64,000 nt of DNA from an uncultured Chloroflexia bacterium (GCA_963813535.1 CAWEZH010000002.1:1248001-1312000), one strand, 5' to 3'; positions 301 to 58,276 are shown, counted from the first letter of the stretch. The notes: generated by a model not told the origin, from the letters alone. A program made the numbers and translations.

Positions 301-317
301 TGCGATGCGCCTGCAAC
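301..317 (+). promoter_or_regulatory. 11-bp direct-repeat box TGCGAT-gcgcc-TGCAAC
   Basis: Matches the motif shared by other intergenic regions; lies between divergent genes. Confidence 0.5.
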
Positions 318-547
318 GTTAGCCCCCGAGAACCCGGCGTGCGCGAGTACTCCCTAGCCACGCCGCTCGCTGCCGGTTCCGGGGCGGCGCATCGTGCGGC
401 TGTTGCCACGCGGTTCGACACGTTCTCGATCGCGCGCCATGTGCATGCACCTCATGGCGTCATCGTCAGCGAGAGGCGGCTACAGGCCGTCGCCACATCG
501 CAACCCCCCGCGGCTTGCAGGGGGCTGGCGGACGACCGTCACGTACG

Positions 548-946
548 ATGCGTCGCGTGCTTCGGATCCTCGTCGCATCCGTCATGGCGCTCGTTGTCGC
601 GGGATGCGGTCTCTCGTCGGTCGTCGTCGACGATGGCGGACCGCCGGTGCCGCCCGGCCCACTCGGCCCGGTCGTGCAACCCGATGGCGGCGGTCCGCCG
701 GTCGAATGCCGAGGTGTCCCGCTCGAGGAATGCAAGGGATTCGGCAACATGGATGGCGCGGGCGACGTCGTCCGCTACATCGTCACCTGCACGTCGGTCT
801 GCACACCCCAGAAGGGCGACGTCCGTATCGACGCATTGCGATCGAATGGGAGGACCGAGCAGCTCGGCCAGGGCACCTGGGAAGGGGCCGAAGCTGCGCC
901 GGAGGTCCCGCCGGCACCCGGATCCAGTCCGCCGGGTCCCAGCTAG
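548..946 (+). CDS. Hypothetical lipoprotein
   Basis: MRRVLRILVASVMALVVAGC is a signal peptide with lipobox; Pro-rich, four further Cys. Confidence 0.65.
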   Translation: MRRVLRILVASVMALVVAGCGLSSVVVDDGGPPVPPGPLGPVVQPDGGGPPVECRGVPLEECKGFGNMDGAGDVVRYIVTCTSVCTPQKGDVRIDALRSNGRTEQLGQGTWEGAEAAPEVPPAPGSSPPGPS

Positions 947-1779
947 GGTGAGTGTCGGCCCTGCAGCTCGATGGCCGCATCGGAGAACGCCGGCCAGCGT
1001 TCGAGTGCCCATGGTCCGAACTCGCGGTCCGTCAGGCAGACGAGTGCCACGTCGAGGACGGGGTCGACCCAGATGAATGTCCCCGCCCCGCCGAAATGAC
1101 CGAAGGTCGCCGCTGAGTTTCGGTCGCCTGTCCAGTGGGGAACCTTGCTGTCACGGATCTCGAACCCGAGCCCCCAATCGAGCGGGTCGAACGGGCCGAC
1201 GCCCGGCAGGACGCCCTTCAGGCCCGGGAATGCGACCGCCTTCGCAGCACTCGACGTGCCGCGACCCACGAGCGTCGGCCGGAGCAGCTCCAGAGCGAGG
1301 ACAGCAGCATCGCCGATCGGTCCCTGCAGGCCCTGGGACGGTCGCTCGACGAGCTCCGTGGCGGCCATACCCAGCGGAGCCAGCACGCGGTCCGCCAGGG
1401 CGACCGCGAATGGGCGGCGGTCGCGCTCCTCGAGGAGCGCCCCGAGCGCGTCGAACCCCGCGTTGGAATAGATCCGACGGGTCCCTGGCCGGGCGAGGAT
1501 CGTCGTGCCATCGAACGGGAGACCTGAGGCATGCGCGAGCAGGTGCCGTACGGTCGATCCCGGCGGTCCGGCGGGCTCGTCGAGATCGATGGTCCCGTCA
1601 TCGACGGCCGTCAGGAGCGCCAACGCCGTCGCGAGCTTCGTGACGGATGCCCAGCGAAAGCCTCGATCGGCGTCGCCGTGCTGGGCGAGCACACCGCTCG
1701 GGCCAACGAGAGCAGCGGCAGCATGCTCGGCGTCCCAATGGTCGATCGCGGCCAGGGCAGCATCGAGGTGGGTCGTCAC
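943..1779 (-). CDS. Serine hydrolase, beta-lactamase family
   Basis: SxxK (WASVTK), LLAHASG, YSN and GHFG motifs. Confidence 0.9.
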   Translation of the reverse strand: MTTHLDAALAAIDHWDAEHAAAALVGPSGVLAQHGDADRGFRWASVTKLATALALLTAVDDGTIDLDEPAGPPGSTVRHLLAHASGLPFDGTTILARPGTRRIYSNAGFDALGALLEERDRRPFAVALADRVLAPLGMAATELVERPSQGLQGPIGDAAVLALELLRPTLVGRGTSSAAKAVAFPGLKGVLPGVGPFDPLDWGLGFEIRDSKVPHWTGDRNSAATFGHFGGAGTFIWVDPVLDVALVCLTDREFGPWALERWPAFSDAAIELQGRHSP

Positions 1780-1839
1780 GGCCCCGGGATGCTAGCCCAC
1801 CGTCATGGGATCGACGCACGCCGGGAATAGACTTCGGGC

Positions 1840-2517
1840 ATGCAGTTCTTCGCTTCCAAGCCCAAGTCCATCCCATCCCCCGACAAGGCGCTGCCCGGCC
1901 GGCCCGATCCGATCATGGAGCCCGGGGTCCACACGATCCTCGGGACGCCCCTTGCCGGACCCTGGCCCGAGGGCACCAAGACCGCCATCTTCGGTCTCGG
2001 CTGCTTCTGGGGTGACGAGAAGGACTTCTGGCAGCTCCCCGGCGTGGTCACCACGGCGGTGGGCTATGCCGGCGGTTCGACGCCGAACCCGACCTACCAG
2101 GAGACATGCACCGGTCAGACCGGCCACGCCGAGGTCGTCCTGGTCGCGTACGACCCGCAGCGGATCTCCTACGAACAGCTTCTCAAGACGTTCTGGGAGC
2201 ATCACGACCCGACGCAGGGCATGCGCCAGGGGAACGATGTCGGCACCCAGTACCGATCGATCATCCTCGTCGCGGACGACGAGCAGCGGGCAGCCGCCGA
2301 GGCATCCAAGGCGATGTACCAGGAGCAGCTGTCGAAGGCGGGCTACGGGGAGATCAAGACCGAGATCGTCGACGCCGCGTCGAACCCGTTCTACTACGCC
2401 GAGGACTACCACCAGCAGTACCTCGACAAGAACCCTCGCGGCTATTGCCCCAACCACTCGACCGGCGTCAAGCTGCCGGCCGACTTCGTCGTCACCCCGC
2501 TGCAGTACGTGGACTGA
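1840..2517 (+). CDS. msrA: Peptide-methionine (S)-S-oxide reductase MsrA
   Basis: [30 protein letters not shown] and GYC motifs. Confidence 0.97.
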
Positions 2518-2699: not shown

Positions 2700-2737
2700 G
2701 TCCTCGACAGGGGTCGCATCAGCACGGAGGCACGGAC

Positions 2738-4922: not shown

Positions 4923-5801
4923 TCACGCCATCGCGCCGTCGGCGACCTGGCGACCGATCGACGGCTCCGACCCATACCCCAGCCGGCCACGGGTGGCGAC
5001 GAGGACCGCCGCCGCGAGGACCGCGAAGCCCGCGTAGACGACCACCGGGTCGACCGACGGCGCGAGCACCGGGATGAATGCCGAGCCCGTGGCGACGCCA
5101 AGGCCCGCGTGGTACAGCCCGACGATCGGCACGCTACGACCCGAGCGGTTGTAGATCCAGGTCAGCACCAGCCGCACCGAGATCGGCAGGACGAACAGCG
5201 CGACGAGGTAGAACGGCACCTGCTCGGCGGTCACACGGCCATCGGTGACGCCGCCCGCGATGAACACCAGCGGGACGTGGATGAGGGCCTGCAGCCAGGT
5301 CGTCACGACGCTGGCGGCGATCGGGCCCAAACGCGGCTGGAGCCGCTCGAGCACGAACCCCGTCCACGCGGTCTCTTCCCACCAGTTGACGAGCGCGAAG
5401 GCGACGACAGCGCCGAGCACGATCGTCACGATGACGGCCGGGTTCGAGGCGAGGGCCGAGATCGGCGAGAGCCCTGCGACAGCGACCGCGGCCACCAGAC
5501 CGGCAGCCGGGAGGAGCAGGACGGCGACCGCATACCACGCCGGGTTGACTCGGAAATGGAAGACGCGGCGACGAAAGGCACGGACGCCTTCACGGCCTTC
5601 GGCGAGGGCGGTCGCGATGAACGCGGCGCCGGCGAGCGAGATGGCCGATAGGAGGATGAATGGCGCGATGCCCGGCAGCTCGAGATCGATGATCCCGATG
5701 CCGTTCGTCGATGCCAGTGGCACCGCGAAGATGGCCGCGCTCGCCGCGTAGGCGATGGTCAGGAAGACGGCGAGTGGATGCCGTCGTGCGATCGATCGCA
5801 T
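4923..5801 (-). CDS. CPBP (CAAX-like) intramembrane metalloprotease
   Basis: Multi-TM; EE(TAW)xG, HVP, YNRSGRS..H motifs; RBS before MRSIARRHPL. Confidence 0.85.
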   Translation of the reverse strand: MRSIARRHPLAVFLTIAYAASAAIFAVPLASTNGIGIIDLELPGIAPFILLSAISLAGAAFIATALAEGREGVRAFRRRVFHFRVNPAWYAVAVLLLPAAGLVAAVAVAGLSPISALASNPAVIVTIVLGAVVAFALVNWWEETAWTGFVLERLQPRLGPIAASVVTTWLQALIHVPLVFIAGGVTDGRVTAEQVPFYLVALFVLPISVRLVLTWIYNRSGRSVPIVGLYHAGLGVATGSAFIPVLAPSVDPVVVYAGFAVLAAAVLVATRGRLGYGSEPSIGRQVADGAMA

Positions 5802-5944
5802 CTGGTGTGTCCCCTTTCGTGGGCTTCTGTGGAGCTGCGGATCAAGCGATCCGTGTGCTTCCCAGACTCGCCTCGCGGGGACGCCACGTCGTCGGTCCAC
5901 GGGCCCGAACGGACACGCGACGTTCGGCGCGACGGGACCGTCCG

Positions 5945-5964
5945 AGCGATACCCGGGTATCGCT
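5945..5964. promoter_or_regulatory. Perfect 20-bp palindrome, candidate site for the NarL-family regulator
   Basis: AGCGATACCC|GGGTATCGCT between the divergent CPBP and kinase genes. Confidence 0.55.
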
Positions 5965-6046
5965 GCGATCTCATCCCACAGGCGGACGCCGAACTCCTGC
6001 CCGAGCGCTACCGTTCGGCACTGGAACCAGCCCTACCGAGGTGTCG

Positions 6047-7240
6047 ATGCTCGACCGACAACCGTCACCGATCGATCGGATACGCCGTGCGCACACCGAG
6101 TCGCCGCGACCCATCGATGTGGCGGTCGCACTCGGCCTCGCCGCGCTGTCCTTTGCCTCGTTCGTCGCTGGCGCGACGACGATCGGCCCTCGCGATGGCA
6201 TCACGGTCGTGCTGCTGCTCCTCGAGAGCCTTCCGCTCATGGTCCGTCGGCGCTATCCCCTCGAGGTGTTCCTGGTCGTGGTCGCCGCCAGCATCGCCCA
6301 CATCGCGATCCTGCCGTCGGATCAGGAACTGCAGTCCGGGCTGGGCATCCTCGTCGCGATGTACACGATCGGAGAGCGGCTCGACCGTCAGGTATCGATC
6401 CCGCTAGCCGTCCTGGCGGGGACGATGATCGCCGTGCTCCTGATCGGCCGCGCCGGTATCCCGGAGGGGCTCCAGAGCCTGATCCAGACCGAGCTCGTCC
6501 TCGGCGTCGCCTGGCTGGTCGGTGACACCTCGCGGATCCGCCACCTGTACACGAAGGCACTCGAGGAACGGGCTCGAATGCTCGATCGCGAACGCGAGGA
6601 GCGCACCAGACGCGCAGTCCTCGAGGAACGTGAGCGCATCGCGCGCGAGCTCCACGACGTCGTCGCCCACCACGTCAGCGTCATGGTCATCCAGGCCGGC
6701 GGCGCGTCGAGCGCCATCGACAAGCGACCCGACCAGGCACGGACCGCGTTGACCGCCATCGCAACGGCCGGGCGTCAGGCGCTGACCGACATGCGCCGGC
6801 TCGTCATGATGCCGGGGACAGGCGAGGCCGTCGAACCCATGCCGGGTCTGGGCCAGCTCGAAATCCTCGTCGACGAGGTCCGCTCGGCGGGGCTGCCGGT
6901 CGAAGTCACCATCCAGGGCGACCCGCGAGTGCTCGACCCCGGGCTCGACCTCTCTGCCTACCGGATCATCCAGGAGGGCCTGACGAACTCGCTCAAGCAC
7001 GCCGCGGGCGGCACGGCCAGGGCGACCGTCAACTACGCCACGGACGCCATCGAGATCACCGTCGAGGATGAGCGTGGCAGCGACAGCACGCCGCACCTGG
7101 AGCCCGACCATGAAGGCCGAGGGCTGCTCGGGATGCGCGAACGTGTCGCGATGTTCCGGGGCACCTTGGATGCCCGTCCGACCCCCACCGGCTATCGCAT
7201 CTTCGCGCGCCTCCCCGCCGCGGACGGAGGTACGCCGTGA
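6047..7240 (+). CDS. Membrane sensor histidine kinase (HisKA_3)
   Basis: EERERIARELHDVVAH, YRIIQEGLTNSLKHA, GRGLLGMRER; TM N-terminus. Confidence 0.95.
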   Translation: MLDRQPSPIDRIRRAHTESPRPIDVAVALGLAALSFASFVAGATTIGPRDGITVVLLLLESLPLMVRRRYPLEVFLVVVAASIAHIAILPSDQELQSGLGILVAMYTIGERLDRQVSIPLAVLAGTMIAVLLIGRAGIPEGLQSLIQTELVLGVAWLVGDTSRIRHLYTKALEERARMLDREREERTRRAVLEERERIARELHDVVAHHVSVMVIQAGGASSAIDKRPDQARTALTAIATAGRQALTDMRRLVMMPGTGEAVEPMPGLGQLEILVDEVRSAGLPVEVTIQGDPRVLDPGLDLSAYRIIQEGLTNSLKHAAGGTARATVNYATDAIEITVEDERGSDSTPHLEPDHEGRGLLGMRERVAMFRGTLDARPTPTGYRIFARLPAADGGTP

Positions 7241-7908
7241 CCATCCGCGTCCTCCTCGTCGACGATCAAGCACTCGTCAGGACGGGCTTCCGGATGATCC
7301 TCGAGGACGAAGCCGACATCGACGTGGTCGGCGAAGCCGCGAACGGGCGCGAGGCCGTCGAGGCGAGCGCGCGCCTTCGCCCGGACGTCATCGTCATGGA
7401 TATCCGCATGCCGGTCATGGATGGCGTCGAGGCCACCCGCAGCTTAGCCGGCGACGAAGCGACGTCCGGGGCCCGCGTCCTCATCCTGACGACGTTCGAC
7501 GCCGACGAGCTCGTCGTCGAGGCATTGCGGGCCGGCGCCAGCGGTTTCCTCCTGAAGGACGTGACACCGGAGGAATTCGTTCGCGCGATCCGCGTCGTCG
7601 CGACTGGCGAGGCGCTACTCGCCCCATCCGTGACGCGCCGCCTCATCGCCCGCTTCGCGCGCCTTCCGGTCCCTGCCGACGAGGTCCACGCGGACGCCTT
7701 GCGCGAGCTGACCGATCGCGAGAGGGAGGTGCTCAAGCTCGTGGCGCTCGGCCTCTCGAACCGGGAGATCGCCGGGCACCTCACGCTGGCCGAACCCACC
7801 GTGAAGACGCACGTCTCGCACCTTCTGCTCAAGCTCGACCTGCGAGATCGGGCGCAGCTGGTGGCATTGGCCTACGAGACCGGCGTCGTCCGTCCCGGCT
7901 CGGGCTAG
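7237..7908 (+). CDS. NarL/LuxR family response regulator
   Basis: REC domain (LVDD, MDIRMP, LLK) plus LTDREREVL..SNREIA HTH; GTGA overlap with the kinase. Confidence 0.95.
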   Translation: MTIRVLLVDDQALVRTGFRMILEDEADIDVVGEAANGREAVEASARLRPDVIVMDIRMPVMDGVEATRSLAGDEATSGARVLILTTFDADELVVEALRAGASGFLLKDVTPEEFVRAIRVVATGEALLAPSVTRRLIARFARLPVPADEVHADALRELTDREREVLKLVALGLSNREIAGHLTLAEPTVKTHVSHLLLKLDLRDRAQLVALAYETGVVRPGSG

Positions 7909-16592: not shown

Positions 16593-16720
16593 CGGGACGT
16601 CGGGACGCAGGCTGCCGATAGACATCCGTCACGAAGCGGGGGCCCGGCTCGTCCACCTCTTCGCGTGTCTTGCGCCATCCTATGCGCCGACATCGCCCCT
16701 TCCGCCGCCCGGAGATCCTC

Positions 16721-21124: not shown

Positions 21125-21706
21125 ATGCCGCGACGGCGCTACATCTTCGACCCGCCCGACCGATTCGTGGCCGGAACCGTCGGCCAACCGGGCGATCGGA
21201 CCTTCTTCCTCCAGGCCCGTGAGGGCGGTCGGGTCGTCTCGGTGGCACTCGAGAAGGTGCAGGTCGCGGTGCTTGCCGAGCGGCTTGGTGCCCTCCTCGA
21301 CGAGCTCGACCTGCGGGGCATCGCCGACCCCACCGACGACGAGCCGGTCGCCACATCGCCGGCCGAGGCCACCCTCGAAAGTGAGACGCTCGACGAGCCA
21401 CTGAACGAAGCGTTCCGGGCCGGGTCATTGACCCTCGGCTGGGACGGCGGGGCGGAGCGCGTCCTGGTCGAGGCACGCGCACAGGACGACGACGGCGAAG
21501 CCATCGATCCCGACGATGATGACGACGAGGACGACGATGGCCCGGACCTGCTGCGTGTCCGCATGACCGCCGCGGCGGCGCGCACGTTCGTCGCTCGCGC
21601 GACGCAGGTCGTGGCGTCGGGCCGTCCACCGTGCCCGCTGTGCGGCGCGCCGCTCGATCCGCGAGGGCACATCTGCCCGCGGCGCAACGGCCACTACGTG
21701 AACTAG
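21125..21706 (+). CDS. DUF3090 family protein
   Basis: FVAGTVGQPGDRTFFLQA, LEKVQV, GRPPCPLCGAPLDPRGHICPRRNGH. Confidence 0.9.
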   Translation: MPRRRYIFDPPDRFVAGTVGQPGDRTFFLQAREGGRVVSVALEKVQVAVLAERLGALLDELDLRGIADPTDDEPVATSPAEATLESETLDEPLNEAFRAGSLTLGWDGGAERVLVEARAQDDDGEAIDPDDDDDEDDDGPDLLRVRMTAAAARTFVARATQVVASGRPPCPLCGAPLDPRGHICPRRNGHYVN

Positions 21707-21825
21707 CTTCTTGTCGCGACGGATGTCGCGAATGTCGAACAGAGCCTCAGGAGGCGGCTGCGATCGTCGGCCGGCCGCTCATTCGAGTCGGGGTCCCGGC
21801 GTCGAGACGATCCCCGCAGCGCCGC

Positions 21826-36309: not shown

Positions 36310-36376
36310 GAGCCAAGATCCCCCTGTTTCCAGCCGTCAACACCGTAACACGCCCATATCGCCGACACGTGGCGAT

Positions 36377-36393
36377 ATCGCAAACGCATAACA
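36377..36393 (-). promoter_or_regulatory. Direct-repeat box TGTTAT-gcgtt-TGCGAT
   Basis: Upstream of the PT surface protein; TACGGT on the minus strand at 36347-36342. Confidence 0.5.
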
Positions 36394-41357: not shown

Positions 41358-41374
41358 TGTCACGGCGTTGCAAT
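41358..41374 (+). promoter_or_regulatory. Direct-repeat box TGTCAC-ggcgt-TGCAAT
   Basis: Upstream of the GAF-PAS kinase. Confidence 0.65.
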
Positions 41375-41518
41375 CCCGCCTCGAGGGGACGCCACGGCGT
41401 CGCAATCCCATCGGTAGTGCACTCGCGGTTCCGGACATGAAGCCAGGGCAGGCTGCGTGCTGGTCTCCGCGCGATACCCCGCGCACCCGTCATCCGCCCC
41501 TGATCCAGACGAGGTGCC

Positions 41519-43579
41519 GTGACCGCTCTACCGCCGATCACCCAAGAGACGGATGACGGCCGCCGCGCGCCGACGACCGACATCCCCACGCGCGGTGACA
41601 CGCTCCTCGACAAGGACGACGTGGCGCTTGCCACGTTCCTGGCCGATGCCGGCCGGATCCTCGGATCCTCGCTCGACAGTGCGGCGACGCTGCGACAGAT
41701 CGCCGACCTGATCGTCCCCGGCGTCGCCGATTGGTGCGCCATCGACATGCTCGATGCGGAGGGTCGGCTGATCCCTCTCGCGCTCGCCCACCGCGACCCG
41801 GAACGGGTCCGTCTCGTGGAGGAGCTTCGCACGAGGTATCCAGCCGACCCGGACGCCGATGTCGGAACGTACGCGGTCGCCCGCACCGGCCAGGCCATGG
41901 TCATCCCCATCATCGACGAGGCGACGATCGCAACCTCCGCCCGCGACGACGGCCACCAGGAGTTGCTCCGTCGGTTGCAGCTCCACTCGTGGATGTGCGC
42001 TCCGATGACGGTCGCCGGGAGGGTGCTGGGCACGATCGGATTCGCCGCTGCCGAAAGTGGTCGCACGTTCGAGGCACGACATGTCGCGTTCGCAGTCGAC
42101 CTTGCAGCGCGGGCTGGTGCCGCCATCGAGAATGCCCGCGCATTCCAGACGGCCGACCGTTTCCGCCAGATCCTCGACGCGGTCGCCGAGGCCGTCTTCG
42201 TCCTCGAGCCAGCGACCGAGATCATCCAGGGCACGAATCACGGCGCCAGCGTCCTGCTCGGGCGGTCCGCCCGCGAGCTCGCCGGCCACCGCCTCTCGGA
42301 CCTTGTCGAGGAGGGCGAGGACGGCCTGTCGCGGATCATCCGCGCCGTCAGGGAGGGTCGTTCGGAGGCGCGCACGATCCCGCTCCACTTCCTGCGCGAC
42401 GGAGCGCCATCTGTGCCGGCGGAGGTCCTGCTCCAACGAGTCGACCTGCCCGGCGAGCCACCCACGACCGTCGCGATCGCCCGCGACGTCCGCGAGCGAC
42501 AGGAGGCGCAGGGCCGGCTTAGGCGACTCGCGGAGGCCGAGCACGCTCGGGCGGCGGAGCTCAACGCGGTCATCCGGGCCATGGGCGATGGCGTCATCGT
42601 GTGCGGGCCGGACGGCAAGACCATCCTCGCCAACCCGGCCGGCCAGGCCATGTTCCCGGGTGGAGCCGAGACGAGCTATGCCAGCATCCTGTCCCGGCTG
42701 CACGATCCGGACGGCGATGCTCCCCCGCTGGGCACTCGCGCCGGGCCGGTGGTCCTCCGGACTCTCGCGGAGCCGGAGCGTTGGATCGAGGTCGCGACAT
42801 ACCCCGTCGCCGACAGGACCAACGACGGCGAGCCTGGCGGCGAGACGATCCTCGTCCTCCGCGACGTGACCGAGCAGCGGCAACGAGAGGCCGTCCGAGA
42901 GACGTTCATCGGTGTGTTGTCGCACGAACTGCGAACGCCGGTCACCACGATCTTCGGCGGCGCGCGCGTCCTCGCGCGTGAGGACAGCGGCCTGGATGAG
43001 GCGACACGACGCGAGATCCTCGTCGACGTGGCCGAGGAGGCCGAGCGGCTCAAGCGACTCGTCGAAGATGTCGTCGCGCTGAACCGCTTCGGCGAGAGCG
43101 ACGGGGACCTCGGGCGAGAACCGGTCCTGCTCCAGCGCATCGTGCCGAGCGTCGTCGCCTCGGAGGAGGAGCGCTGGCCGGGCGTCTCCTTCACGCTCGA
43201 GATGGTCCCCGGCCTGCCCACCGTGGTCGCCGACCCGACGTACCTCGAGCAGGTGATCCGGAACCTGCTCGCCAACGCTGCGAAGTACGGCGGTCCCGGC
43301 GCGGCGGTGGAGGTCGTGGTCGAATACGACCGGGTCGTCGACGAGGTCGCGGTATGCGTTCGCGACGATGGGCCGGGCATCGAGTTGCAGGAGGCCGAGC
43401 GGCTCTTCGAACTGTTCTACCGCTCTCCGAATACCGCGACCGCCACGACCGGCGCCGGGATCGGCCTGTTCGTCTGTGCGCGGCTGGTCCGCGCCATGGG
43501 CGGGCGTGTCTGGGCGAGGCCGCTGCCCGCGGGTGGCGCCGAGTTCGCCTTCGCGCTCCGCGTGATGCCCGACGACTGA
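41519..43579 (+). CDS. Orphan soluble GAF-PAS-PAS histidine kinase
   Basis: VPGVADWCAID (GAF), SHELRTP, NLLANAAKY, DDGPGI, GAGIGL. Confidence 0.95.
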   Translation: MTALPPITQETDDGRRAPTTDIPTRGDTLLDKDDVALATFLADAGRILGSSLDSAATLRQIADLIVPGVADWCAIDMLDAEGRLIPLALAHRDPERVRLVEELRTRYPADPDADVGTYAVARTGQAMVIPIIDEATIATSARDDGHQELLRRLQLHSWMCAPMTVAGRVLGTIGFAAAESGRTFEARHVAFAVDLAARAGAAIENARAFQTADRFRQILDAVAEAVFVLEPATEIIQGTNHGASVLLGRSARELAGHRLSDLVEEGEDGLSRIIRAVREGRSEARTIPLHFLRDGAPSVPAEVLLQRVDLPGEPPTTVAIARDVRERQEAQGRLRRLAEAEHARAAELNAVIRAMGDGVIVCGPDGKTILANPAGQAMFPGGAETSYASILSRLHDPDGDAPPLGTRAGPVVLRTLAEPERWIEVATYPVADRTNDGEPGGETILVLRDVTEQRQREAVRETFIGVLSHELRTPVTTIFGGARVLAREDSGLDEATRREILVDVAEEAERLKRLVEDVVALNRFGESDGDLGREPVLLQRIVPSVVASEEERWPGVSFTLEMVPGLPTVVADPTYLEQVIRNLLANAAKYGGPGAAVEVVVEYDRVVDEVAVCVRDDGPGIELQEAERLFELFYRSPNTATATTGAGIGLFVCARLVRAMGGRVWARPLPAGGAEFAFALRVMPDD

Positions 43580-43582: not shown

Positions 43583-44557
43583 CTAGAGCCAGTGGCGCCA
43601 GCGGGCGACGCCGATGATCCCCACGGCGAGGCCCACCATGCCACCGATCACCAGCAGGAAGTTCGAGGGCTCGTCGAAGAACCCGAGCTTGAAGTTCATG
43701 CCCATGATCCCGGCCAGGACGACCGCGGGCAGCAGGACGGCCGACAGGAGCGTCAGCGTCCGCATCACGTCGTTCGCGCGCTGGGACACCCGACCCATGT
43801 GGATGTCGAACGTCCCGAGGAGGCGGTCGCGCAGTCCCTCGACGGAGGACATCGCGGCCTCGAGACGGTCGACCAGCCCGGGCCACGGCTTGCCGATCGC
43901 ATCGTCGATGCCGATCCTCGGCAGACCGAGCGTCGAGAAGGCGTCGCGATGGGGAGCGAGCGTCCGGCGCACCTCCCCGATCCGAAGGCGTAGCGCGACG
44001 ATGGCCGTCAGGATGTCGTCGCCGTGCCGCCCGTGGAGTGCACGCTCGTCAAGCTCGTCGATCTCTCGCTCGATCTGCTCCACCAAGAGGAAATAGCCGA
44101 CAAGCACTTCGTCCACGAGGGCCGACACCAGGTCGCCCGCAGCGAGGTGGCCGAGGGCGGTCTCGCCGTCGAGGCCGTCGCGGAAGCGCTTGAGGGCCTC
44201 GACGTGCCCCTCGTGGACGGTCACCACCACGTCCTTCCCGGCCAGCAGGTCGATCTCGCGACGGACCAGTCGACCGGGATCCTTCTCGTCAGGCTCCATG
44301 GCCTGGAGCGTGATGTGGAGCAGGTCGGCGGTCCGGGTCAGGCGCGCGCGCCCTTCATCCGTGGTCAGTCGCTCCATGTCCGCTTCGCGCAGGCCGAGCA
44401 ACTCGACCGTATCCACGAGCTCCCTTTCCTCCTCGCGGCTGTCGATGTCGACCCACAGCAGCCGTTTCGGGCCGAGCGAGCGGACGATCTCTTCGGTCAG
44501 CTCGACCCGGCGATCGCGTGCATCCGCGTCGAAAAGGCGGGCGCTGACGCTGCTCAG
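43583..44557 (-). CDS. corA: CorA family divalent cation transporter, probable CTG start
   Basis: GMNF signature between two TM helices; LLWVDI segment upstream of GTG 44416; CTG overlaps the upstream stop (CTGA). Confidence 0.88.
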   Translation of the reverse strand: MSSVSARLFDADARDRRVELTEEIVRSLGPKRLLWVDIDSREEERELVDTVELLGLREADMERLTTDEGRARLTRTADLLHITLQAMEPDEKDPGRLVRREIDLLAGKDVVVTVHEGHVEALKRFRDGLDGETALGHLAAGDLVSALVDEVLVGYFLLVEQIEREIDELDERALHGRHGDDILTAIVALRLRIGEVRRTLAPHRDAFSTLGLPRIGIDDAIGKPWPGLVDRLEAAMSSVEGLRDRLLGTFDIHMGRVSQRANDVMRTLTLLSAVLLPAVVLAGIMGMNFKLGFFDEPSNFLLVIGGMVGLAVGIIGVARWRHWL

Positions 44558-44691
44558 CGTACGAAGCTCAGCAGGCCGGCAGCGACGACGGCGACGACGG
44601 CGACCAGGTACTGCAGCGCGAGCATCGTCCGGTCATGGGGTGGATCGACGTCCCATGAGCCGGTCGGCGTGGCGGCGGGATCGAACAGCAT
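44554..44691 (-). CDS. Small single-TM protein coupled to corA
   Basis: MLFDPAATPTGSWDVDPPHDRTMLALQYLVAVVAVVAAGLLSFVR; alternative start at 44625. Confidence 0.6.
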   Translation of the reverse strand: MLFDPAATPTGSWDVDPPHDRTMLALQYLVAVVAVVAAGLLSFVR

Positions 44692-44776
44692 CGATGTAGG
44701 GCCCTCATGCGTCCGTGGTCGACGGCATCGTGCTGGTCGCCGCCATGCGACGAGGGCAGTTAGCGGAGCGTAGCGC

Positions 44777-44793
44777 ATCGCGTCCGCATGACA
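44777..44793 (-). promoter_or_regulatory. Direct-repeat box TGTCAT-gcgga-CGCGAT
   Basis: CACGAT 50 bp downstream of the second half-site. Confidence 0.55.
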
Positions 44794-44854: not shown

Positions 44855-44920
44855 TGCGAGCAGCCTGCAACGTCACTCGGCATCGCGCTGGCATCCCCGA
44901 CGCGTGCTTCCCCGTACGGT
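44855..44920 (+). promoter_or_regulatory. Direct-repeat box TGCGAG-cagcc-TGCAAC plus -10 TACGGT
   Basis: Second half-site at 44866; TACGGT at 44915 (49 bp). Confidence 0.65.
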
Positions 44921-44993: not shown

Positions 44994-45155
44994 ATGCTTA
45001 AGCGACTTCTTCTTTTGGTGGCCCTAGGGGCTGCCCTCGCGGCCTGCTCGCCGTCCGGTAGCGCGAGCTCGCCGGGAACGGAGACCATCGCGCCGGTCGA
45101 GTCCGGCGTGCCGTCGGCCAGCGAGATGCCGAGCGAGTCCGCCTCGCCGTCCTGA
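44994..45155 (+). CDS. Small Ser/Pro-rich lipoprotein
   Basis: AGGAGG RBS; MLKRLLLLVALGAALAAC lipobox. Confidence 0.8.
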   Translation: MLKRLLLLVALGAALAACSPSGSASSPGTETIAPVESGVPSASEMPSESASPS

Positions 45156-45207: not shown

Positions 45208-45378
45208 TCCGGATCCCCGCGACCACGAAGTCACGCGGCGGATTCATGCCGTTGTTACGCGCCGGCCCCCGTCCGTTGTCCGAAGACTTCGTGACGACGA
45301 CGACAGTGGCGCCGAACCCCGAACGGGTCATAACCCCAGCAAGCGGGTGAGACGCCCGCAAGGGGAAGGAGGTAGATC

Positions 45379-45660
45379 GTGAGCATCATCGCGTGGATCG
45401 TGCTCGGTGCAATCGCCGGGTACTTGGCCGGTTTTCTCGTCAAGGGTGACGAGGGGCTTGGGATCATCGGGCACATCGTGCTCGGGATCGTCGGCGCGCT
45501 CATCGGCGGGTTCGTCGCCGGGGCACTGTTCAACAGCGATCCCATCAACGGGGCGCTCGACATCAGCTCCATCGTCGTCGCGACGATCGGTGCCGTCGCC
45601 ACGGTCGTGGTCGTGAGTGCCGTGATGGGCCGGAGCCGCGTGGGTCGCGGGCCCATCTGA
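45379..45660 (+). CDS. GlsB/YeaQ/YmgE stress response membrane protein
   Basis: IIAWIVLGAIAGYLA..IVLGIVGALIGG..ATIGAV. Confidence 0.92.
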   Translation: MSIIAWIVLGAIAGYLAGFLVKGDEGLGIIGHIVLGIVGALIGGFVAGALFNSDPINGALDISSIVVATIGAVATVVVVSAVMGRSRVGRGPI

Positions 45661-45762: not shown

Positions 45763-46239
45763 ATGTCGAGGATCGTCGAATCCATCGATGTGGACGTCCC
45801 CGTCCGCATGTCGTACGCCCAGTGGACGCAGTTCGAGGAGTTCCCGCGCTTCATGGAGGGCGTGAAGGAGGTCCGCCAGGTCGACGACACGACGATCGAG
45901 TGGACTGCTGAGATCAAGAGCATCGAACGATCGTGGAAGGCTGAGATCACCGAGCAGGAGCCGGACACCGTCATCGCATGGCGCTCCACGAGCGGCGCCA
46001 CGAACGACGGGCGAGTCACGTTCGAGCCGCTGGGCGAGAACCGGACGAGAGTCACCCTGCAGCTCGACGTCGAGCCCGATGATCCGATCGAGAAGGCCGG
46101 GGACGCGCTGGGCTTCGTCGAGCGCCAGGTGGAGGGAGATCTGCGCCGGTTCAAGGAGTTCATCGAAGCGCGAGGAACGCCGACCGGCGGCTGGCGGGGC
46201 GAGGTCGGGGGCGGCCAGAAGGTTGGGAGCAGCCGCTGA
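45763..46239 (+). CDS. SRPBCC (cyclase/dehydrase) family protein
   Basis: YAQWTQFEEFPRFMEGV, AEITEQ, DLRRFKEFIE..TGGWRG. Confidence 0.93.
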   Translation: MSRIVESIDVDVPVRMSYAQWTQFEEFPRFMEGVKEVRQVDDTTIEWTAEIKSIERSWKAEITEQEPDTVIAWRSTSGATNDGRVTFEPLGENRTRVTLQLDVEPDDPIEKAGDALGFVERQVEGDLRRFKEFIEARGTPTGGWRGEVGGGQKVGSSR

Positions 46240-46371
46240 GCCGCGAGGCCCATGCAAGGGCCAGCAGGCCGAGTGCACGGACGACCGTGACGTGAATGGG
46301 CCCACGCTGCTCATGTGGCTCCTGTACCACTGGGGGTCCGGGAGCCACATCTACGCTATGAGGACGACCCG

Positions 46372-46674
46372 ATGATGGACGCACCCGCCATCGAGCAGAC
46401 ACCAGGGACGCACCGCGCGCTCTTCGCGTGGTTCTCGAGTCCGCGCGTCGCGGTCCGGACCGCCGTCCGCCTCGGCGAGACGGTGCCTGGGGCCCGTGTC
46501 TGCATCCGACCGTCCGAGGATCACGGAGCTGAAGGGCCGGTCGTAGCGCTGAGCGCCCAGATCCCGTGGTCGTTGTCGACCATGGTGACCCGCCAGCTCA
46601 GCGGTCTCGGCGTCGCCGTCCTGTGGGATGCCGACGACATCGTTGACGAGCCGACTCTCCGAGCGGCCGTATGA
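46372..46674 (+). CDS. Hypothetical protein
   Basis: GAGG RBS; 100 aa; preceded by a hairpin at 46313-46350. Confidence 0.5.
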   Translation: MMDAPAIEQTPGTHRALFAWFSSPRVAVRTAVRLGETVPGARVCIRPSEDHGAEGPVVALSAQIPWSLSTMVTRQLSGLGVAVLWDADDIVDEPTLRAAV

Positions 46675-46680: not shown

Positions 46681-46746
46681 TGTCATGCGTCTGTAATGTC
46701 GCGAGCCTGCGACATGGCGGCAACGGGACACGCGCTGGCCTACGGT
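46681..46746 (+). promoter_or_regulatory. Direct-repeat box TGTCAT-gcgtc-TGTAAT plus -10 TACGGT
   Basis: Second half-site at 46692; TACGGT at 46741 (49 bp). Confidence 0.7.
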
Positions 46747-46752: not shown

Positions 46753-46851
46753 AACAGAAAGATCACCACAAGGCGGGCGCTTGTGACGGGGCGCACCTCC
46801 TTTAGCACGGACGGTTCGGGTCCCCTCCCCGGGCCGTCCGTCGCCTTTTCT
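46753..46851 (+). ncRNA. Candidate sRNA with anti-Shine-Dalgarno sequence
   Basis: Promoter, hairpin 46767-46785, CACCTCCTTT at 46794-46803, terminator stem 46807-46841 then CTTTTCT. Confidence 0.5.
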
Positions 46852-46885: not shown

Positions 46886-47239
46886 ATGAGCGCGACGACA
46901 TCCGGCCGCGGGAACTCCGCGGCGACAGACAACGATCCGAAGGAACGCCTGGCATCGACTGCCCGCCAGGCCGCCGATACGGTCGGCGGTGTGGCCGGTG
47001 AGGTCGCCGCTCGCCTGCCCGAGGCGGCCACGACGACACGGGACGCGCTCGAAGAAGCGAATCGCCGGGTCCGAGCGGGGTCTGACGAGACGCTCAAGCT
47101 CGTGGGCGCCGCGTCACTGGCATTCGCCACAGGCCTGCTCTTCGGCGGCGCCAATCGACTGCTGGTGATCGCCGCCCTCGTGCCTGCCGCGCTGGTCGGC
47201 TCGGAGTACGCCCAGCGCCAGACGTCGACCACCAAGTAG
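46886..47239 (+). CDS. Hypothetical membrane-anchored protein
   Basis: GAGG RBS; helical N-terminus and C-terminal TM segments. Confidence 0.7.
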   Translation: MSATTSGRGNSAATDNDPKERLASTARQAADTVGGVAGEVAARLPEAATTTRDALEEANRRVRAGSDETLKLVGAASLAFATGLLFGGANRLLVIAALVPAALVGSEYAQRQTSTTK

Positions 47240-47379
47240 CGGTCACGTCCACGGCTTCGTCGCGCGGCGCAACGGCACTGATAGCAGCCGGCCGCCGCGA
47301 TGGGACATCCCGCAACACGCCCGGCCGTAAGTTCGACCCGACCCGCGACCTGCGGGGGCGCGAAGGAGGTATCGAGCTG

Positions 47380-47583
47380 ATGGATGACGTGAAGCGCACC
47401 GCGCGTGAAGCGGAGAACGAGGCGAAGGAACAGGCTCGCCGAGCCGATGGCGATGAGAGCCTGGCCGACAAGGCCGCCAACGTTGGTGACGACGTCCGCA
47501 CAGGCCTTGGCAATGCCGGCGACAAGATCGACGAAGAGGTCGATCGCGCCAAGTTCCGCCAGGAGCACGGCGACGACGTCTGA
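47380..47583 (+). CDS. CsbD-like small acidic stress protein
   Basis: AAGGAGG RBS; hydrophilic ADKAANVGDD..NAGDKI. Confidence 0.75.
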   Translation: MDDVKRTAREAENEAKEQARRADGDESLADKAANVGDDVRTGLGNAGDKIDEEVDRAKFRQEHGDDV

Positions 47584-48771: not shown

Positions 48772-48822
48772 GACGGCCACGGTACGGGTGCCCGCCTCGC
48801 ACGGATACGGGTCGAGGGGCTT

Positions 48823-48888
48823 CGCTACATGCCTGCAATCTCGCATCCAAGCCGGGTTCGGCTTGCCGATAGGGACCATGCCGATACT
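48823..48888 (+). promoter_or_regulatory. Direct-repeat box CGCTAC-atgcc-TGCAAT plus -10-like GATACT
   Basis: Second half-site at 48834; GATACT at 48883 (49 bp). Confidence 0.55.
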
Positions 48889-49004: not shown

Positions 49005-49976
49005 ATGGACGCAGTCACCATCGACGGAGCATCGAAGCACTTCGGCGACGAGGTCGTCTTGAGCGACGTCACGATCTCCGTCCAGGAAGGTTCGATCCTC
49101 GGGATCATCGGGCCGTCCGGCGCGGGCAAGACCACACTGGTTCGCCTCATGACCGGTGCGCTCGCCCCGACCGAGGGCGAGATCCGGGTCATGGGCGAGG
49201 ACCCGCAGCACCTGAAGCGGCGCACACGCGAGCGGATCGGCTACATGCCCCAGCTGTTCGCTCTCTACCCCGACCTCACGGCCCGCGAGAACGTCGATTT
49301 CGTGGCTTCTCTGTTCGGCCTGCTGTGGTGGCGCCGCCGACGGCGGACGCGTCAGGTGCTCGAGCTGGTGGACCTGTGGGACGTGCGCAAGAGACGCGCG
49401 GGCCGACTATCGGGCGGCATGCAGCGACGCCTCGAGCTTGCCTCGGCCCTGGTGCACGACCCACAGATCCTGTTCCTCGACGAGCCGACCGCCGGGATCG
49501 ACCCGCTGCTCCGTGCCGCGATCTGGCACGAGCTGACGCGGCTCCGCGACGCCGGCCGGACCCTGCTGGTGACCACCCAATACGTCGGCGAAGCCGAGCG
49601 CTGCGACGCCGTGCTCCTCATCTCGGACGGCAGGGTCATCGCGACCGGCACGCCCGACGAACTGCGCCGGTCGGCGATCGGCGGCGACCTGGTGGAGATC
49701 GAGACATCCGAGCCGATCGACGCCAGCGCCCTCCGCAGCATCGGCGGAATCCGGCGCATCGAGCAGCGCGGGCCGAACGAGATCCGGGCGACCGTCGACG
49801 AAGCGTCCAAGGTCCTCCCGGAGATCGTCGAGGCGATCAATGCGCTCGGGATCGACGTCGATTCTGCTGCTGAGGCGCGCCCGTCCTACGATGAGGTCTT
49901 CGCCATCCTCGTCGAGCGGGCGCGGTCATCCCCGCCGGATGGCGAACGCACCGCCGGCGGCGAGCGAGCCGCCTGA
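49005..49976 (+). CDS. ABC-2 type transporter ATP-binding protein
   Basis: GPSGAGKT, LSGGM, LFLDEPT. Confidence 0.95.
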   Translation: MDAVTIDGASKHFGDEVVLSDVTISVQEGSILGIIGPSGAGKTTLVRLMTGALAPTEGEIRVMGEDPQHLKRRTRERIGYMPQLFALYPDLTARENVDFVASLFGLLWWRRRRRTRQVLELVDLWDVRKRRAGRLSGGMQRRLELASALVHDPQILFLDEPTAGIDPLLRAAIWHELTRLRDAGRTLLVTTQYVGEAERCDAVLLISDGRVIATGTPDELRRSAIGGDLVEIETSEPIDASALRSIGGIRRIEQRGPNEIRATVDEASKVLPEIVEAINALGIDVDSAAEARPSYDEVFAILVERARSSPPDGERTAGGERAA

Positions 49977-51169
49977 TGCGGACCATCCTCACCACCATCT
50001 GGCGGCTGCTCGCCTTCGTCGGCAAGGAGCTCGTCGAGACCGTTCGGCGACCAGGCGCGATCGTGAGCCTCGTGGTCGGCCCATTCCTGATCATGGCCGT
50101 GTTCGGGCTGGGATTCAGCGGCATCCGGCGCCCGCTCGAAACGATCGTCGTGATCCCGCCAGCGAGCCAGCTCCCCGCCACCGAGGCCGACTACCAGGAA
50201 CTCGCCGGACCTGCCCTCCACATCGCCGGCGTCGTCGGGGATCGGACCGAGGCAGAGGCGAGCCTGCGAGCCGGTGACATCGACCTCGTGGTGGTCGCCC
50301 CCGAGGATCCCGAGGGCGCCTTCCGGGCGGGCGAGCGCTCGACGATCGAGATCCTGGTCGACGAGGTCGACCCCGTGGCCGAGAACTACGCCACCATCCT
50401 CGGCGGCGCCCTGGCGAATGCGGTGAACCGACAGATCATCGAGCAGGCCGTCGAGGAGGGTCAGGGCTACGCGGTCCAGGCCGGCGAGGAGGCGGTGGAG
50501 GCACTGTCACCGGAGGTGGTCGCCGCGCCGACCGAGGCCCGCCTTGCCAACCTCGCACCACAGAGCCCGACCGTCACGTCGTACTTCGGACCGGCCGTCC
50601 TCGCGCTGATCCTCCAACACCTCGCCGTGACCCTCGTCTCGATGTCGCTCGTGCGCGAACGCTCCAGCGGTGTGATGGAACTGTTCCGGATCGCCCCGGT
50701 CACCGCCTCCGAGGTGCTCGCGGGCAAGGTGCTGGCCTTCGGCCTGCTCGGTTTCGTGGTCGCCGGACTGACGATCGTGCTGATGGTGACTTTCCTTGGC
50801 GTGCCGTCACTGGCCGATCCGGGGGCGCTCGCAGGGGTCGTGGGTCTGCTGCTCCTGGCGTCTCTCGGGTTCGGGCTGCTGATCGCCGTCGTCTCCGACT
50901 CGGAGCGGCAAGCCGTGCAGCTGTCCCTGCTGGTGCTGCTCGCCTCGGTGTTCTTCAGCGGCTTCGTCCTGGCCATCGACCAGTTCACGCCACCCGTGCG
51001 CGCGCTCGCGTATGCGCTACCGGTGACCCACGGGATCCAGCTGCTGCAGGACGTGATGCTGCGCGGGTCGACGAACAACCTATGGCAGGCCGGCGCGCTC
51101 GGCGTGATCGCCGCGGTGACGCTGATCGCGGCCTGGCTCCTGTTGCGCCGCAATATGCGAACGGCCTAG
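49976..51169 (+). CDS. ABC-2 type permease
   Basis: TM pattern, VRERSSGVME, AGK, FFSG. Confidence 0.92.
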   Translation: MRTILTTIWRLLAFVGKELVETVRRPGAIVSLVVGPFLIMAVFGLGFSGIRRPLETIVVIPPASQLPATEADYQELAGPALHIAGVVGDRTEAEASLRAGDIDLVVVAPEDPEGAFRAGERSTIEILVDEVDPVAENYATILGGALANAVNRQIIEQAVEEGQGYAVQAGEEAVEALSPEVVAAPTEARLANLAPQSPTVTSYFGPAVLALILQHLAVTLVSMSLVRERSSGVMELFRIAPVTASEVLAGKVLAFGLLGFVVAGLTIVLMVTFLGVPSLADPGALAGVVGLLLLASLGFGLLIAVVSDSERQAVQLSLLVLLASVFFSGFVLAIDQFTPPVRALAYALPVTHGIQLLQDVMLRGSTNNLWQAGALGVIAAVTLIAAWLLLRRNMRTA

Positions 51170-51183: not shown

Positions 51184-51249
51184 TGCCACGGGCCTGCAAC
51201 GCCCGCTCGCGCGATGCGCGCCAAGCCGTTGCGGCCTCACTGCCACCCT
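51184..51249 (+). promoter_or_regulatory. Direct-repeat box TGCCAC-gggcc-TGCAAC plus TGn-CACCCT
   Basis: Second half-site at 51195; CACCCT at 51244 (49 bp). Confidence 0.6.
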
Positions 51250-51281: not shown

Positions 51282-51467
51282 ATGACCGACGAACGAACCA
51301 ACGAGTTCCCGGGGACGCATACGGATGACGACGAGACGGGCGACGACGCCAGGGACGCCGTCGACCGCGAGCCGCAGCCCGACAAGGATGAGCCGAACCC
51401 GCTGCTGCGCGAGGGCGCGAGCGCCCCGGACGCCGCGGACATCGAGGACCCTGACGAGCAGCTGTGA
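51282..51467 (+). CDS. Small acidic hydrophilic protein
   Basis: GGAG RBS; 61 aa, D/E-rich. Confidence 0.6.
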   Translation: MTDERTNEFPGTHTDDDETGDDARDAVDREPQPDKDEPNPLLREGASAPDAADIEDPDEQL

Positions 51468-53163: not shown

Positions 53164-53374
53164 CGTCGATCGGCCTCCTTGACCTGGGGGTCCAGCGGAC
53201 CGTACGGGACCGTTCCACGGCCGGATGTCATCGCCACTGGGTGCGGTGTATCACCCGGATATCAGCGGTCCGTGTGTGCTTCACGAGCGGTGTCACCTGT
53301 CACCGTCGAGCCGGCCTCGGACCGGCGTGGGTCATACTTCCTGCCGACCTCGTGGACCCGCAGGGAGGAGCGCG

Positions 53375-57736: not shown

Positions 57737-57789
57737 GCTCGTGTCTATCGTAGGGCGCTCCGTCCTCGGGCGGAGGTTGCGGGTGGGAA

Positions 57790-58179
57790 CTACTCCGTTT
57801 CGAGACCCTCCTGCGCCACGCCCTCCAGGCGGAGGGTGGTGTCGAGGATCTCGTCGCGGACCATCGACCGAGTCGACGGATCGCCCGCGTACTTGCGCTC
57901 CAACGCGGCCGAGGTTCGGGCGGTGGATCCGGGATCGTGGGCCGGGATCGCCCGTGCGGGTATCCGCCGCTTGCCGACGTGGATCGCGATCTCGGGGTTC
58001 GCCACCGCCTCCCGATACCACCTAGCCGTCGGACCACGCCAGGATCGGACGAACACATCGTCGCCGTCGACGACGGCCCAGATGGTCGTCCGATGGATCG
58101 GACCAGCGCCGCGGGACGTCTCGATGCGGACGGTCTTCGCCCGGTCGATGAGGTCCAGGTCGTCCTTCGTCATGGCCAT
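57790..58179 (-). CDS. DUF2255 family protein
   Basis: TTIWAVVDGDDVFVRSWRG..WYR..RKY. Confidence 0.8.
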   Translation of the reverse strand: MAMTKDDLDLIDRAKTVRIETSRGAGPIHRTTIWAVVDGDDVFVRSWRGPTARWYREAVANPEIAIHVGKRRIPARAIPAHDPGSTARTSAALERKYAGDPSTRSMVRDEILDTTLRLEGVAQEGLETE

Positions 58180-58248
58180 GGCTGCAGGGTAGCGGCGCCC
58201 GATGGCACGTGTCGCTGGGCTCGTCGCGGTCTGCGCGAGCGGCCGTCC

Positions 58249-58276
58249 TGTAATGCCGATGTATCGGTTTTGCAAT
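58249..58276 (+). promoter_or_regulatory. Triple 11-bp direct repeat TGTAAT/TGTATC/TGCAAT
   Basis: Half-sites at 58249, 58260 and 58271, upstream of the small protein and OmpR regulator. Confidence 0.65.

Follow-up and report, generated by a model that had tools for sequence, protein, structure and literature searches.

The stretch of DNA analysed in this work, hereafter the window, comprises 64,000 nucleotides (nt) of an uncultured Chloroflexia bacterium (GCA_963813535.1, CAWEZH010000002.1:1248001-1312000) and has a G+C content of 69%. It carries genes for a GAF-PAS histidine kinase, CorA, GlsB, an ABC-2 exporter, topoisomerase IB, a series of small proteins and a response regulator, and many of these are preceded by a short sequence that we call the box, a tandem direct repeat of hexamers with a period of 11 bp in every site. 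An earlier reading of the window (the original prediction) had described it, in degenerate form, as TGYNAY-N5-TGYAAY at ten intergenic sites, placed a -10 hexamer at a fixed distance downstream, and proposed a general-stress regulon under an OmpR-type regulator. At least a dozen putatively box-controlled operons are present in the window, of which 12 fall in the 41.3-58.3 kb interval, and related Chloroflexota have the box at these operons too.

All ten sites (301, 36393(-), 41358, 44793(-), 44855, 45242, 46681, 48823, 51184, and 58249) were found where they had been placed and on the strands given. The strict pattern has four matches (301, 41358, 46681, and 51184), compared with 0.06 expected from 100 dinucleotide shuffles of the window; when up to one mismatch is allowed there are 11 matches compared with 2.41 expected, and none of the 100 shuffles attained 11. 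The claimed intergenic placement stood when coding DNA was added as a control. In a gene map built from G+C at third codon positions, Pfam matches, and open reading frames (ORFs), intergenic DNA makes up 9.9% of the window, and all four strict matches and 10 of the 11 one-mismatch matches lie wholly within it (binomial P = 1e-4 and 9e-10, respectively), although site 301 is near the window edge with no gene called there and its intergenic status is uncertain. The sole coding match is 24229(-). First-order Markov simulation of the intergenic DNA alone gave means of 0.008 strict and 0.25 one-mismatch matches, against the 4 and 10 observed. All window sites are oriented toward their downstream gene, and the consensus of the two half-sites, which form a distal pair relative to the promoter elements described below, is T-TGTnATG-N4-TGnAAT. 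The original prediction had overlooked four more sites, at 46242(+), 47268(+), and 53264(-) and, in weak form, at 48845(-).

The nearest relatives returned by a genome scan anchored on the topoisomerase IB gene, which lies amid the motif cluster, are Chloroflexota metagenome-assembled genomes (MAGs), mostly labelled Candidatus Limnocylindrales/Limnocylindria or "uncultured Chloroflexia"; depositor labels vary, L001 being filed as Patescibacteria and L015 as Anaerolineaceae. An actinobacterial origin, suggested at first sight by the Pfam matches, was discarded in view of these relatives. Topoisomerase IB identity to the window is 92% in L005, 80% in L041, L002, and L025, 79% in L001, 75% in L008, 74% in L010, 72% in L004 and L006, 71% in L003, 68% in L015, and 65% in L007 and L013. 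Because gene order near this anchor is largely common to the window and the related loci, these loci could be used for phylogenetic footprinting of eight of the ten originally predicted sites; sites 301 and 36393(-) lie outside their coverage. In several relatives (L003 7684, L041 7693, L025 1419, L008 5976, and L004 6575), the first half-site reads TGGCAC, which is the sigma-54 -24 motif.

Downstream of the box, the original prediction had placed nAnnnT hexamers 49 bp past the second half-site at five sites (44915, 45302, 46741, 48883, and 51244) and 50 bp past it at two (44732(-) and 58310), and all seven are there as claimed. As a general rule the fixed spacing holds in most of the listed sites and fails in two of the ten, 301 and 36393, which have no nAnnnT at either offset. 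The spacing was also examined in 65 boxes with at most one mismatch from the window and 16 related loci, with the downstream sequence unfiltered. The hexamer begins at 49 bp in 35 of the 65 boxes and at 50 bp in 12 (47 together), and every other offset in the range 6-109 is represented by 0-5 boxes. The information profile of the same sample has conserved columns at C43 (54/65), G44 (47/65), A61 (36/65), and T65 (40/65), with columns 17, 18, and 24 weakly informative and no conserved column at the -35 position. The minimal -10 form is (T/G/C)AnnnT, in which only the A and T positions are conserved.

The columns at +43 and +44 belong to a third conserved element that was absent from the original account. 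It resembles a half-site, lies 11 nt upstream of the -10, and has the consensus CG(A/T)N(A/G)C (e.g., CGATAC, CGATGC, CGTTGC, CGTGAC, and CGCAAT); of 48 offset-49 sites, 25 have the half-site signature YGnnA at +43. Where the offset is 50, the element is at +44, so that it travels with the -10: its distance to the -10 is constant at 11 nt and its distance to the box is variable. The repeat-signature profile of the box sites has no half-site signal at +22 or +33, so that a continuous array, of repeats or of bound protein, from the box to the -10 is not supported. If numbered so that the -10 hexamer covers -12 to -7, the promoter has its distal pair at about -72 to -56 and its third element at about -29 to -24. 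With half-site distances of 11 bp and 32-33 bp, the three half-sites would face the same side of the helix.

We take the -10 to be real on account of the topoisomerase IB genes, whose start codons follow the hexamer by 6-7 nt in five genomes (the window, L004, L007, L010, and L013). As judged from these predicted starts, the layout is that of leaderless mRNAs. The transcription start that had been predicted about 61 bp past the second half-site is consistent with such leaderless-type genes in the same five genomes. We conclude that the box, the third element, and the -10 very likely make up a promoter.

Orthologous promoters keep the box, the -10, and the third element while their spacers diverge. 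Five promoter families with 6-10 genomes each were footprinted, namely, those of a 117-amino-acid (aa) protein, the ABC exporter, a 61-aa acidic protein, a 53-aa lipoprotein, and a 45-aa peptide with CorA. Mean pairwise identity across these families is 0.73-0.91 for the box, 0.70-1.0 for the -10, and 0.49-0.94 for the +43 element, compared with 0.31-0.54 for flanks and spacers. A composite matrix of the box, the +43 element, and the -10 (score threshold 18) initially gave 60 sites in the related loci and no match across 493 kb from other phyla of equal GC richness. After refinement, the matrix gave 104 sites at or above 18 in 268 kb from 14 related sources (2-12 per source), none in the same 493-kb GC-rich outgroup, none in the more distant L023, L032, and L036, and one in an Opitutus locus (GC 0.61). 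A held-out matrix was trained on 83 sites from 12 other genomes, leaving out the window and its 92% relative L005, and was applied with a threshold of 15. It recovered 12 window sites (301, 41358, 44793(-), 44855, 46242, 46681, 47268, 48823, 48845(-), 51184, 53264(-), and 58249), compared with a mean of 0.375 in simulated windows. The box is a real, conserved, and lineage-specific feature.

The best individual site, 46681..46746 (+), has the box TGTCAT-gcgtc-TGTAAT (46681-46697), the middle element CGGGAC (46724-46729), and the -10 TACGGT (46741-46746). It lies upstream of the gene for the 117-aa membrane-anchored protein (46886-47239), and its box and -10 are kept in 10 genomes, with diverged spacers. 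A conserved stretch in the leader of this gene, ACCACAAGGCGGG, is found about 20-30 nt past the -10 in six genomes (46770-46790 (+) in the window). Two other sites stand back to back and are each kept in six genomes. One of these, 44855..44920 (+), consists of the box TGCGAG-cagcc-TGCAAC, the middle element CGACGC, and the -10 TACGGT (44915-44920), upstream of the 53-aa lipoprotein-like gene (44994-45155). The other, 44727..44793 (-), has the box TGTCAT-gcgga-CGCGAT (44793-44777), CGCATG, and the -10 CACGAT at offset 50 (44732-44727), and is followed by the 45-aa membrane peptide (44691-44554) and then CorA (44416-43583, Pfam match).

At 45242..45307 (+), a degenerate box, ATTCAT-gccgt-TGTTAC, with the -10 GACAGT (45302-45307) precedes a GlsB/Transgly_assoc gene (45379-45660), which is followed by a gene for an SRPBCC protein (about 45763-46239). 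This site falls below the matrix threshold, and its box and -10 are kept upstream of the GlsB orthologue in L005, L041, L002, L006, L007, and L013. Downstream of the predicted start and just before the ribosome-binding site, the leader contains a hairpin-like sequence, CCCCAGC..GCGGGTGAGAnGCCCGC..GGGAAGGAGG (45330-45375 (+)), that is also conserved in L005, L041, L002, L006, and L013; Rfam gave no match at gathering thresholds anywhere in the window, this leader included.

Among the newly found sites, 46242..46308 (+) has the box CGCGAG-gccca-TGCAAG, the middle element CGTGAC, and the -10 CACGCT (offset 50), upstream of a 100-aa protein gene without a family match (46372-46674). Its counterparts are an orthologous site at L005 12620 and a similar site at L041 12937, where no ORF is called; a further box precedes the 100-aa protein orthologue at L001 4802, and another lies at L041 12579. 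Site 47268..47333 (+) consists of the box CGCAAC-ggcac-TGATAG, CGCAAC, and the -10 TAAGTT (47328-47333) and precedes the gene for a 67-aa hydrophilic protein (47380-47583). It has counterparts at L001 3790 and L041 11547, and homologous genes in L006 and L008 are box-preceded too. Site 53199..53264 (-), with the box TGATAT-ccggg-TGATAC (53264-53248) and the -10 TACGGT (53204-53199), lies upstream of a roughly 150-aa protein (ATG at 53162, end at 52710) homologous to glycine-zipper proteins of the relatives. The homologue at L041 5266-5748 is 49% identical, the one in L007 has a Gly-zipper Pfam match, and the counterparts are box-preceded at L041 5171 and L007 5516.

Site 48823..48888 (+) comprises the box CGCTAC-atgcc-TGCAAT, CGATAG, and the -10 GATACT (48883-48888), upstream of the ABC-2 exporter genes (49005-51169, Pfam matches); it is found in nine genomes with a -10 that is 100% identical. 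The fourth new site, 48779..48845 (-), has a weak box, TGCGAG-attgc-AGGCAT, and the -10 TACCGT (48784-48779); after a further 7 nt comes the topoisomerase IB ATG at 48771, and the true extent of this gene is 48771-47662 (-). The boxes of these two divergent genes overlap on opposite strands (48823-48845), as they also do in L004 (9982/10004), and a single protein bound there might serve, or choose between, two promoters. Further downstream, 51184..51249 (+) combines the box TGCCAC-gggcc-TGCAAC, CGTTGC, and the -10 CACCCT (51244-51249) upstream of the 61-aa acidic protein gene (51282-51467), and is kept in six genomes.

At 58249..58315 (+), the repeat is triple, TGTAAT/TGTATC/TGCAAT with an 11-bp period (58249-58276), and the -10 GATGCT (58310-58315) lies 50 bp past the second repeat; next come the genes of a 63-aa membrane protein (58340-58531) and, behind it, of the response regulator. 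The remaining three sites depart from the common layout. Site 41358..41423 (+) has the box TGTCAC-ggcgt-TGCAAT, a second box-like copy (CGCCAC-ggcgt-CGCAAT) at 41390, and a -10-like TAGTGC at offset 46 (41415-41420), upstream of the GAF-PAS histidine kinase gene (41519-43579). It is kept in L005, L002, and L041, with TAGTGC in the first two and ATGTGC in the third, and related kinases in L004, L007, and L013 are box-preceded too. At 301..317 (+), a perfect box, TGCGAT-gcgcc-TGCAAC, stands without a -10-like hexamer at offset 49 or 50. At 36377..36393 (-), the box TGTTAT-gcgtt-TGCGAT has TACGGT at offset 35 rather than 49 and lies upstream of a PKD-domain gene (36309-33821). Between this box and TACGGT is a near-perfect palindrome, GATATCGCC..GGCGATAT (36350-36376 (-)), which may be the site of a second regulator and may account for the atypical spacing. 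The 840-aa PKD-domain gene, on the minus strand, also coincides with a strong local GC skew of +0.147 and an AT skew of -0.195 in the segment 34001-36000.

The families downstream of boxes are led by a 113-133-aa membrane-anchored protein (10 genomes), followed by the ABC-2 exporter (9), GlsB with SRPBCC (7), and the 61-aa acidic protein, the small lipoprotein, and the 45-aa peptide with CorA (6 each). Further families are the GAF/PAS histidine kinase, the 100-aa protein, a 67-110-aa hydrophilic protein, the glycine-zipper protein, topoisomerase IB, a 56-65-aa "MPQKAW" protein, a class A penicillin-binding protein (L002 and L041), and the small membrane protein with the response regulator. The 56-65-aa protein, which starts with MPQKAW.DKRERQYEHIK, is box-preceded at L003 5273, L004 6575, L006 6013, and L008 5976; it belongs to no Pfam or NCBIfam family, and tblastn against the window found no homologue. 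In L002, the class A penicillin-binding protein is encoded by a single, box-preceded ORF of 869 aa. In the window (16670-19523 (+)) it is split into a transglycosylase ORF (16670-18307) and a transpeptidase ORF (17979-19523) that overlap in different frames, the split being a frameshift or assembly error; no box was found upstream of the window gene. An M20 peptidase gene of the window (31384-32635 (-)) is likewise split into overlapping ORFs, 31538-32635 and 31384-31797, which match consecutive parts of the Pfam profile.

The label of a general-stress regulon fared unevenly. GlsB is borne out by a PF04226 match, and SRPBCC and the glycine zipper lend further support. By contrast, the description of 47380-47583 as "CsbD-like" finds no backing in Pfam or NCBIfam: neither CsbD nor DUF883 was detected for this protein or for 46886-47239, even at E up to 0.05. 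Six small targets (44554-44691, 44994-45155, 46372-46674, 46886-47239, 47380-47583, and 51282-51467) have no Pfam match and at most a far sub-threshold NCBIfam match, so that family support is limited to GlsB, SRPBCC, the glycine zipper (through a relative's homologue), transporters, kinases, and enzymes. With most targets lacking a family, the label draws on resemblance in gene content, and the targets as a set suggest a response of the stress or dormancy type.

The protein encoded at 58591-59346 (+) had been proposed to be an OmpR/PhoB-type regulator, and both expected domains are present (PF00072 Response_reg, 106.8 bits with a cut-off of 30.2; PF00486 Trans_reg_C, 70.5 with 26.2). No kinase gene lies beside it. 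The triple box claimed for its operon recurs in L007 (2235) and L015 (2999), where the gene order of the window is repeated, with triple box, small membrane protein, and regulator arranged divergently from pyruvate dehydrogenase E1. In L013 a box is directly upstream of the regulator gene, and the operon is thus preceded by a box in all four genomes that cover the region (the window, L007, L015, and L013). The regulator orthologues of L013, L015, and L007 are 88-91% identical, compared with 65-68% for topoisomerase IB in those loci. In the three readable copies (the window, L007, and L015), the recognition helix and wing are the same except for conservative changes outside the helix core. The L007 orthologue (992-1886 (-)) is broken by a frameshift into two ORFs.

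Among NCBIfam equivalogs, the 58591 protein scores below the cut-off of every one tested, the top match being RpaB (211 bits; cut-off 330), followed by MtrA (201; 300), PhoB (186; 296), YycF (185; 340), KdpE (181; 325), and OmpR (154; 331). Its DNA-binding domain aligns with that of Escherichia coli KdpE (E = 5e-13) and matches KdpE R193, R200, and T215 with R, R, and T, respectively; these KdpE residues are named in PMC3264566. These data are consistent with an autoregulated, box-binding activator. The original prediction held that a response regulator activates the gene set and that 58591 is the best local candidate; the 6-5-6 geometry and the conserved linkage agree with both points, and it is only from these that we infer binding. 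An activator of the OmpR/PhoB type quite probably binds the box, and that this activator is 58591 seems to us somewhat more probable than otherwise.

Taken together, we favour, on balance, activator-dependent three-part promoters that lack a -35 and are driven by an OmpR/PhoB-family response regulator, for which 58591 would be the likeliest candidate. In this model the phosphorylated regulator would bind the distal pair head to tail and would also contact the proximal half-site, which is located like the promoter-proximal repeat of a Pho box; RNA polymerase with a housekeeping-type sigma factor would thereby be recruited. Through the triple repeat, the kinase-less 58591 regulator would activate its own operon. 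A candidate partner is the GAF-PAS kinase at 41519, itself putatively box-controlled, although this is a guess from regulon membership only; another kinase gene lies at about 53.3-55.0 kb.

Several points weigh against this model. Membership in a regulon is no proof of being its regulator, and the organism is known from metagenome assemblies only. The spacing rule is violated at 301 and 36393, and the -10-like hexamer at 41358 comes 3 bp early. The proximal element keeps its distance to the -10 rather than to the box and could belong to the polymerase or the sigma factor, and given the lack of half-site signal at +22 and +33, the distal dimer would have to communicate across 26 nt. The stress label rests on few annotated targets. 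Finally, the composite matrices were trained within the same lineage, so that their counts are partly circular and only the held-out matrix is cross-validated; orthologous sites are not independent, and the effective sample is about 14 promoter families.

The alternative that survives best is that another protein encoded elsewhere (OmpR-family, SARP-like, or unrelated) binds the box and that 58591 is merely one of its targets. Just 64 kb of the genome are visible, and even these contain further regulators, for example, a LuxR-type pair (5711-7908) and a helix-turn-helix protein (21631-23163); in addition, 58591 is tied to the DNA by family-level expectation and conserved linkage alone. Against this, the 6-5-6 direct-repeat geometry points to OmpR/PhoB rather than to LuxR- or Xre-type proteins, the orthologue of 58591 is the sole such regulator behind a box in all four covering genomes, and it is unusually well conserved. 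We regard this alternative as rather unlikely, though far from negligible.

Promoters of SigB/SigF or EcfG type have a conserved -35/-10 pair with a spacing of about 14-17 nt. An alternative sigma factor could read the proximal element and the -10, leaving the distal box as an accessory upstream element or the site of a modulator, as general-stress regulons are usually under sigma factors such as SigB, RpoS, and EcfG, and the proximal element stays 11 nt from the -10 and shifts along with it in offset-50 sites. We consider this improbable. At about -29 to -24, the element is 6 bp too near for known -35/-10 pairs of the sigma-70 family, and it resembles a box half-site, YGnnA(C). Conservation within the -10 is limited to its A and T, a feature of housekeeping-type promoters. 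The gene and Pfam survey of the window showed no sigma-factor gene, and consensus patterns of EcfG, SigB/SigF, and sigma-54 promoters are not enriched and are found at none of the box sites. Specifically, promoters of the form GTTT..GGGTA (SigB/SigF) or GGAAC..CGTT (EcfG) have 0 and 1 matches in the window, with 0.13 and 1.32 expected, and none at boxes. A reading of the extracytoplasmic function (ECF) type, with the second half-site as the -35, is ruled out by the information profile, which has no conserved element 16-18 nt downstream.

It is very improbable that the box serves as a repressor operator, or that it arose by chance or from a repeat and plays no part in activation. Nothing specific favours an operator beyond the fact that operators can be conserved too, and a repressor has no need of a strict distance and orientation to the -10 from a position far upstream of the polymerase footprint. 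Chance is ruled out by the shuffles, the intergenic placement, and the held-out matrix, and the spacers are unrelated among promoter families, so that the box is not a dispersed repeat. A sigma-54 (-24/-12) promoter, which has an invariant GG-N10-GC within TGGCAC-N5-TTGCW and starts about 12 nt downstream, is hardly credible: TGGCAC in the first half-site at L003 7684, L041 7693, and L025 1419 and TGCA in the second half recall it, but the G..GC spacing falls short of this by one base, the third position of the first half-site can be T, C, G, or A, a conserved -10 lies 43 nt further downstream with leaderless-type start codons right after it, and the canonical pattern has 13 matches in the window compared with 13.5 expected, none at a box.

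Chloroflexota of the Limnocylindria type are abundant in soil and fresh water and are known almost only from metagenomes. Our literature search returned nothing on promoters or regulons of Limnocylindria, the papers that name the class being genomic or ecological by their titles, and nothing relevant for Chloroflexi combined with general stress response and response regulator. The present analysis provides for this lineage a cross-validated promoter model, in which a minimal -10 lacking a -35 is combined with an activator box and a predicted start, and a regulon of at least 14 gene families, mostly of no assigned function, with a named candidate regulator and a candidate kinase. The box motif also offers a means of annotating stress genes and transcription starts in MAGs of the lineage. 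More tentatively, and with clearly less confidence, we suggest that this Chloroflexota class may have a general-stress or dormancy programme under a response regulator and not an alternative sigma factor, in which a lone proximal half-site, downstream of a distal pair, would replace the -35. In such a split architecture the high-affinity pair would sit exactly three helical turns upstream of the lone half-site, and the regulator would act both as recruiter and as stand-in for the -35. If true, the strict 32/33-bp gap free of repeats would imply a bridging or DNA-bending assembly undescribed for the OmpR/PhoB family. The split layout would merit notice should one and the same protein prove to read the distal pair as well as the proximal half-site.

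Among known systems, the regulons of SigB, RpoS, EcfG, and mycobacterial SigF resemble the present one in the kind of gene set, which has GlsB/Transgly_assoc and glycine-zipper proteins alongside numerous small proteins that are hydrophilic or anchored in the membrane. In contrast to those regulons, the shared cis-element here is an activator-type direct repeat with a bare -10, not a sigma-specific -35/-10 pair.

The window half-site TGTCAT resembles the Pho-box repeat of E. coli. The box promoters of E. coli PhoB and of Streptomyces and Mycobacterium tuberculosis PhoP likewise have direct repeats with an 11-bp period and no -35, and Pho boxes end about 10-11 bp upstream of a TAnnnT -10 (PMC1906773). 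In activation complexes of M. tuberculosis PhoP (PMC11825685), several tandem PhoP dimers can line up, replacing the contact of sigma region 4 with the -35 and touching the alpha and beta-flap domains. Compared with Pho-box promoters, the strong pair here ends 43 nt rather than 10 nt before the -10, the Pho-box position has just one weak half-site, and no repeat signal exists between the distal pair and the proximal half-site. A Pho regulon itself is ruled out by the absence of phosphate-acquisition targets, with no genes of the pst, pho, or ugp type found among the targets, and by the PhoB equivalog score (186 bits; cut-off 296).

KdpE acts at the kdpFABC promoter, where its site lies far upstream, at roughly -72 to -50. 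Its target sequence consists of two 6-bp direct repeats 5 bp apart (PMC3264566), the same 6-5-6 geometry as in the box, and the DNA-binding domain of 58591 aligns well with that of KdpE. The differences are that KdpE has essentially one target operon and is encoded beside KdpD, whereas 58591 has a kinase-less neighbourhood and at least 12 candidate targets in 64 kb, that the KdpE half-sites are TTTATA and TTTACA, and that 58591 falls below the KdpE cut-off (181 vs 325 bits).

RpaB of cyanobacteria is the top NCBIfam match of 58591 and a global regulator of more than 150 promoters, in which sites centred about 51 nt upstream activate (PMC6525291). On the other strand, the second half-site of the box reads RTTRCA and resembles the (G/T)TTACA of the HLR1 repeat. 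The HLR1 repeats are 8 nt long with a 2-nt gap and a 10-bp period, and activating sites are centred at about -51, whereas the window boxes have an 11-bp period and are centred at about -64. Furthermore, 58591 reaches 211 bits where the RpaB cut-off is 330, and the targets here are of the stress type, not phosphate, potassium, or photosynthesis genes. These comparisons place the box promoters close to known kinds; what is unusual is their split layout, with the distal pair 43 nt away from the -10 and one weak half-site proximal to it.

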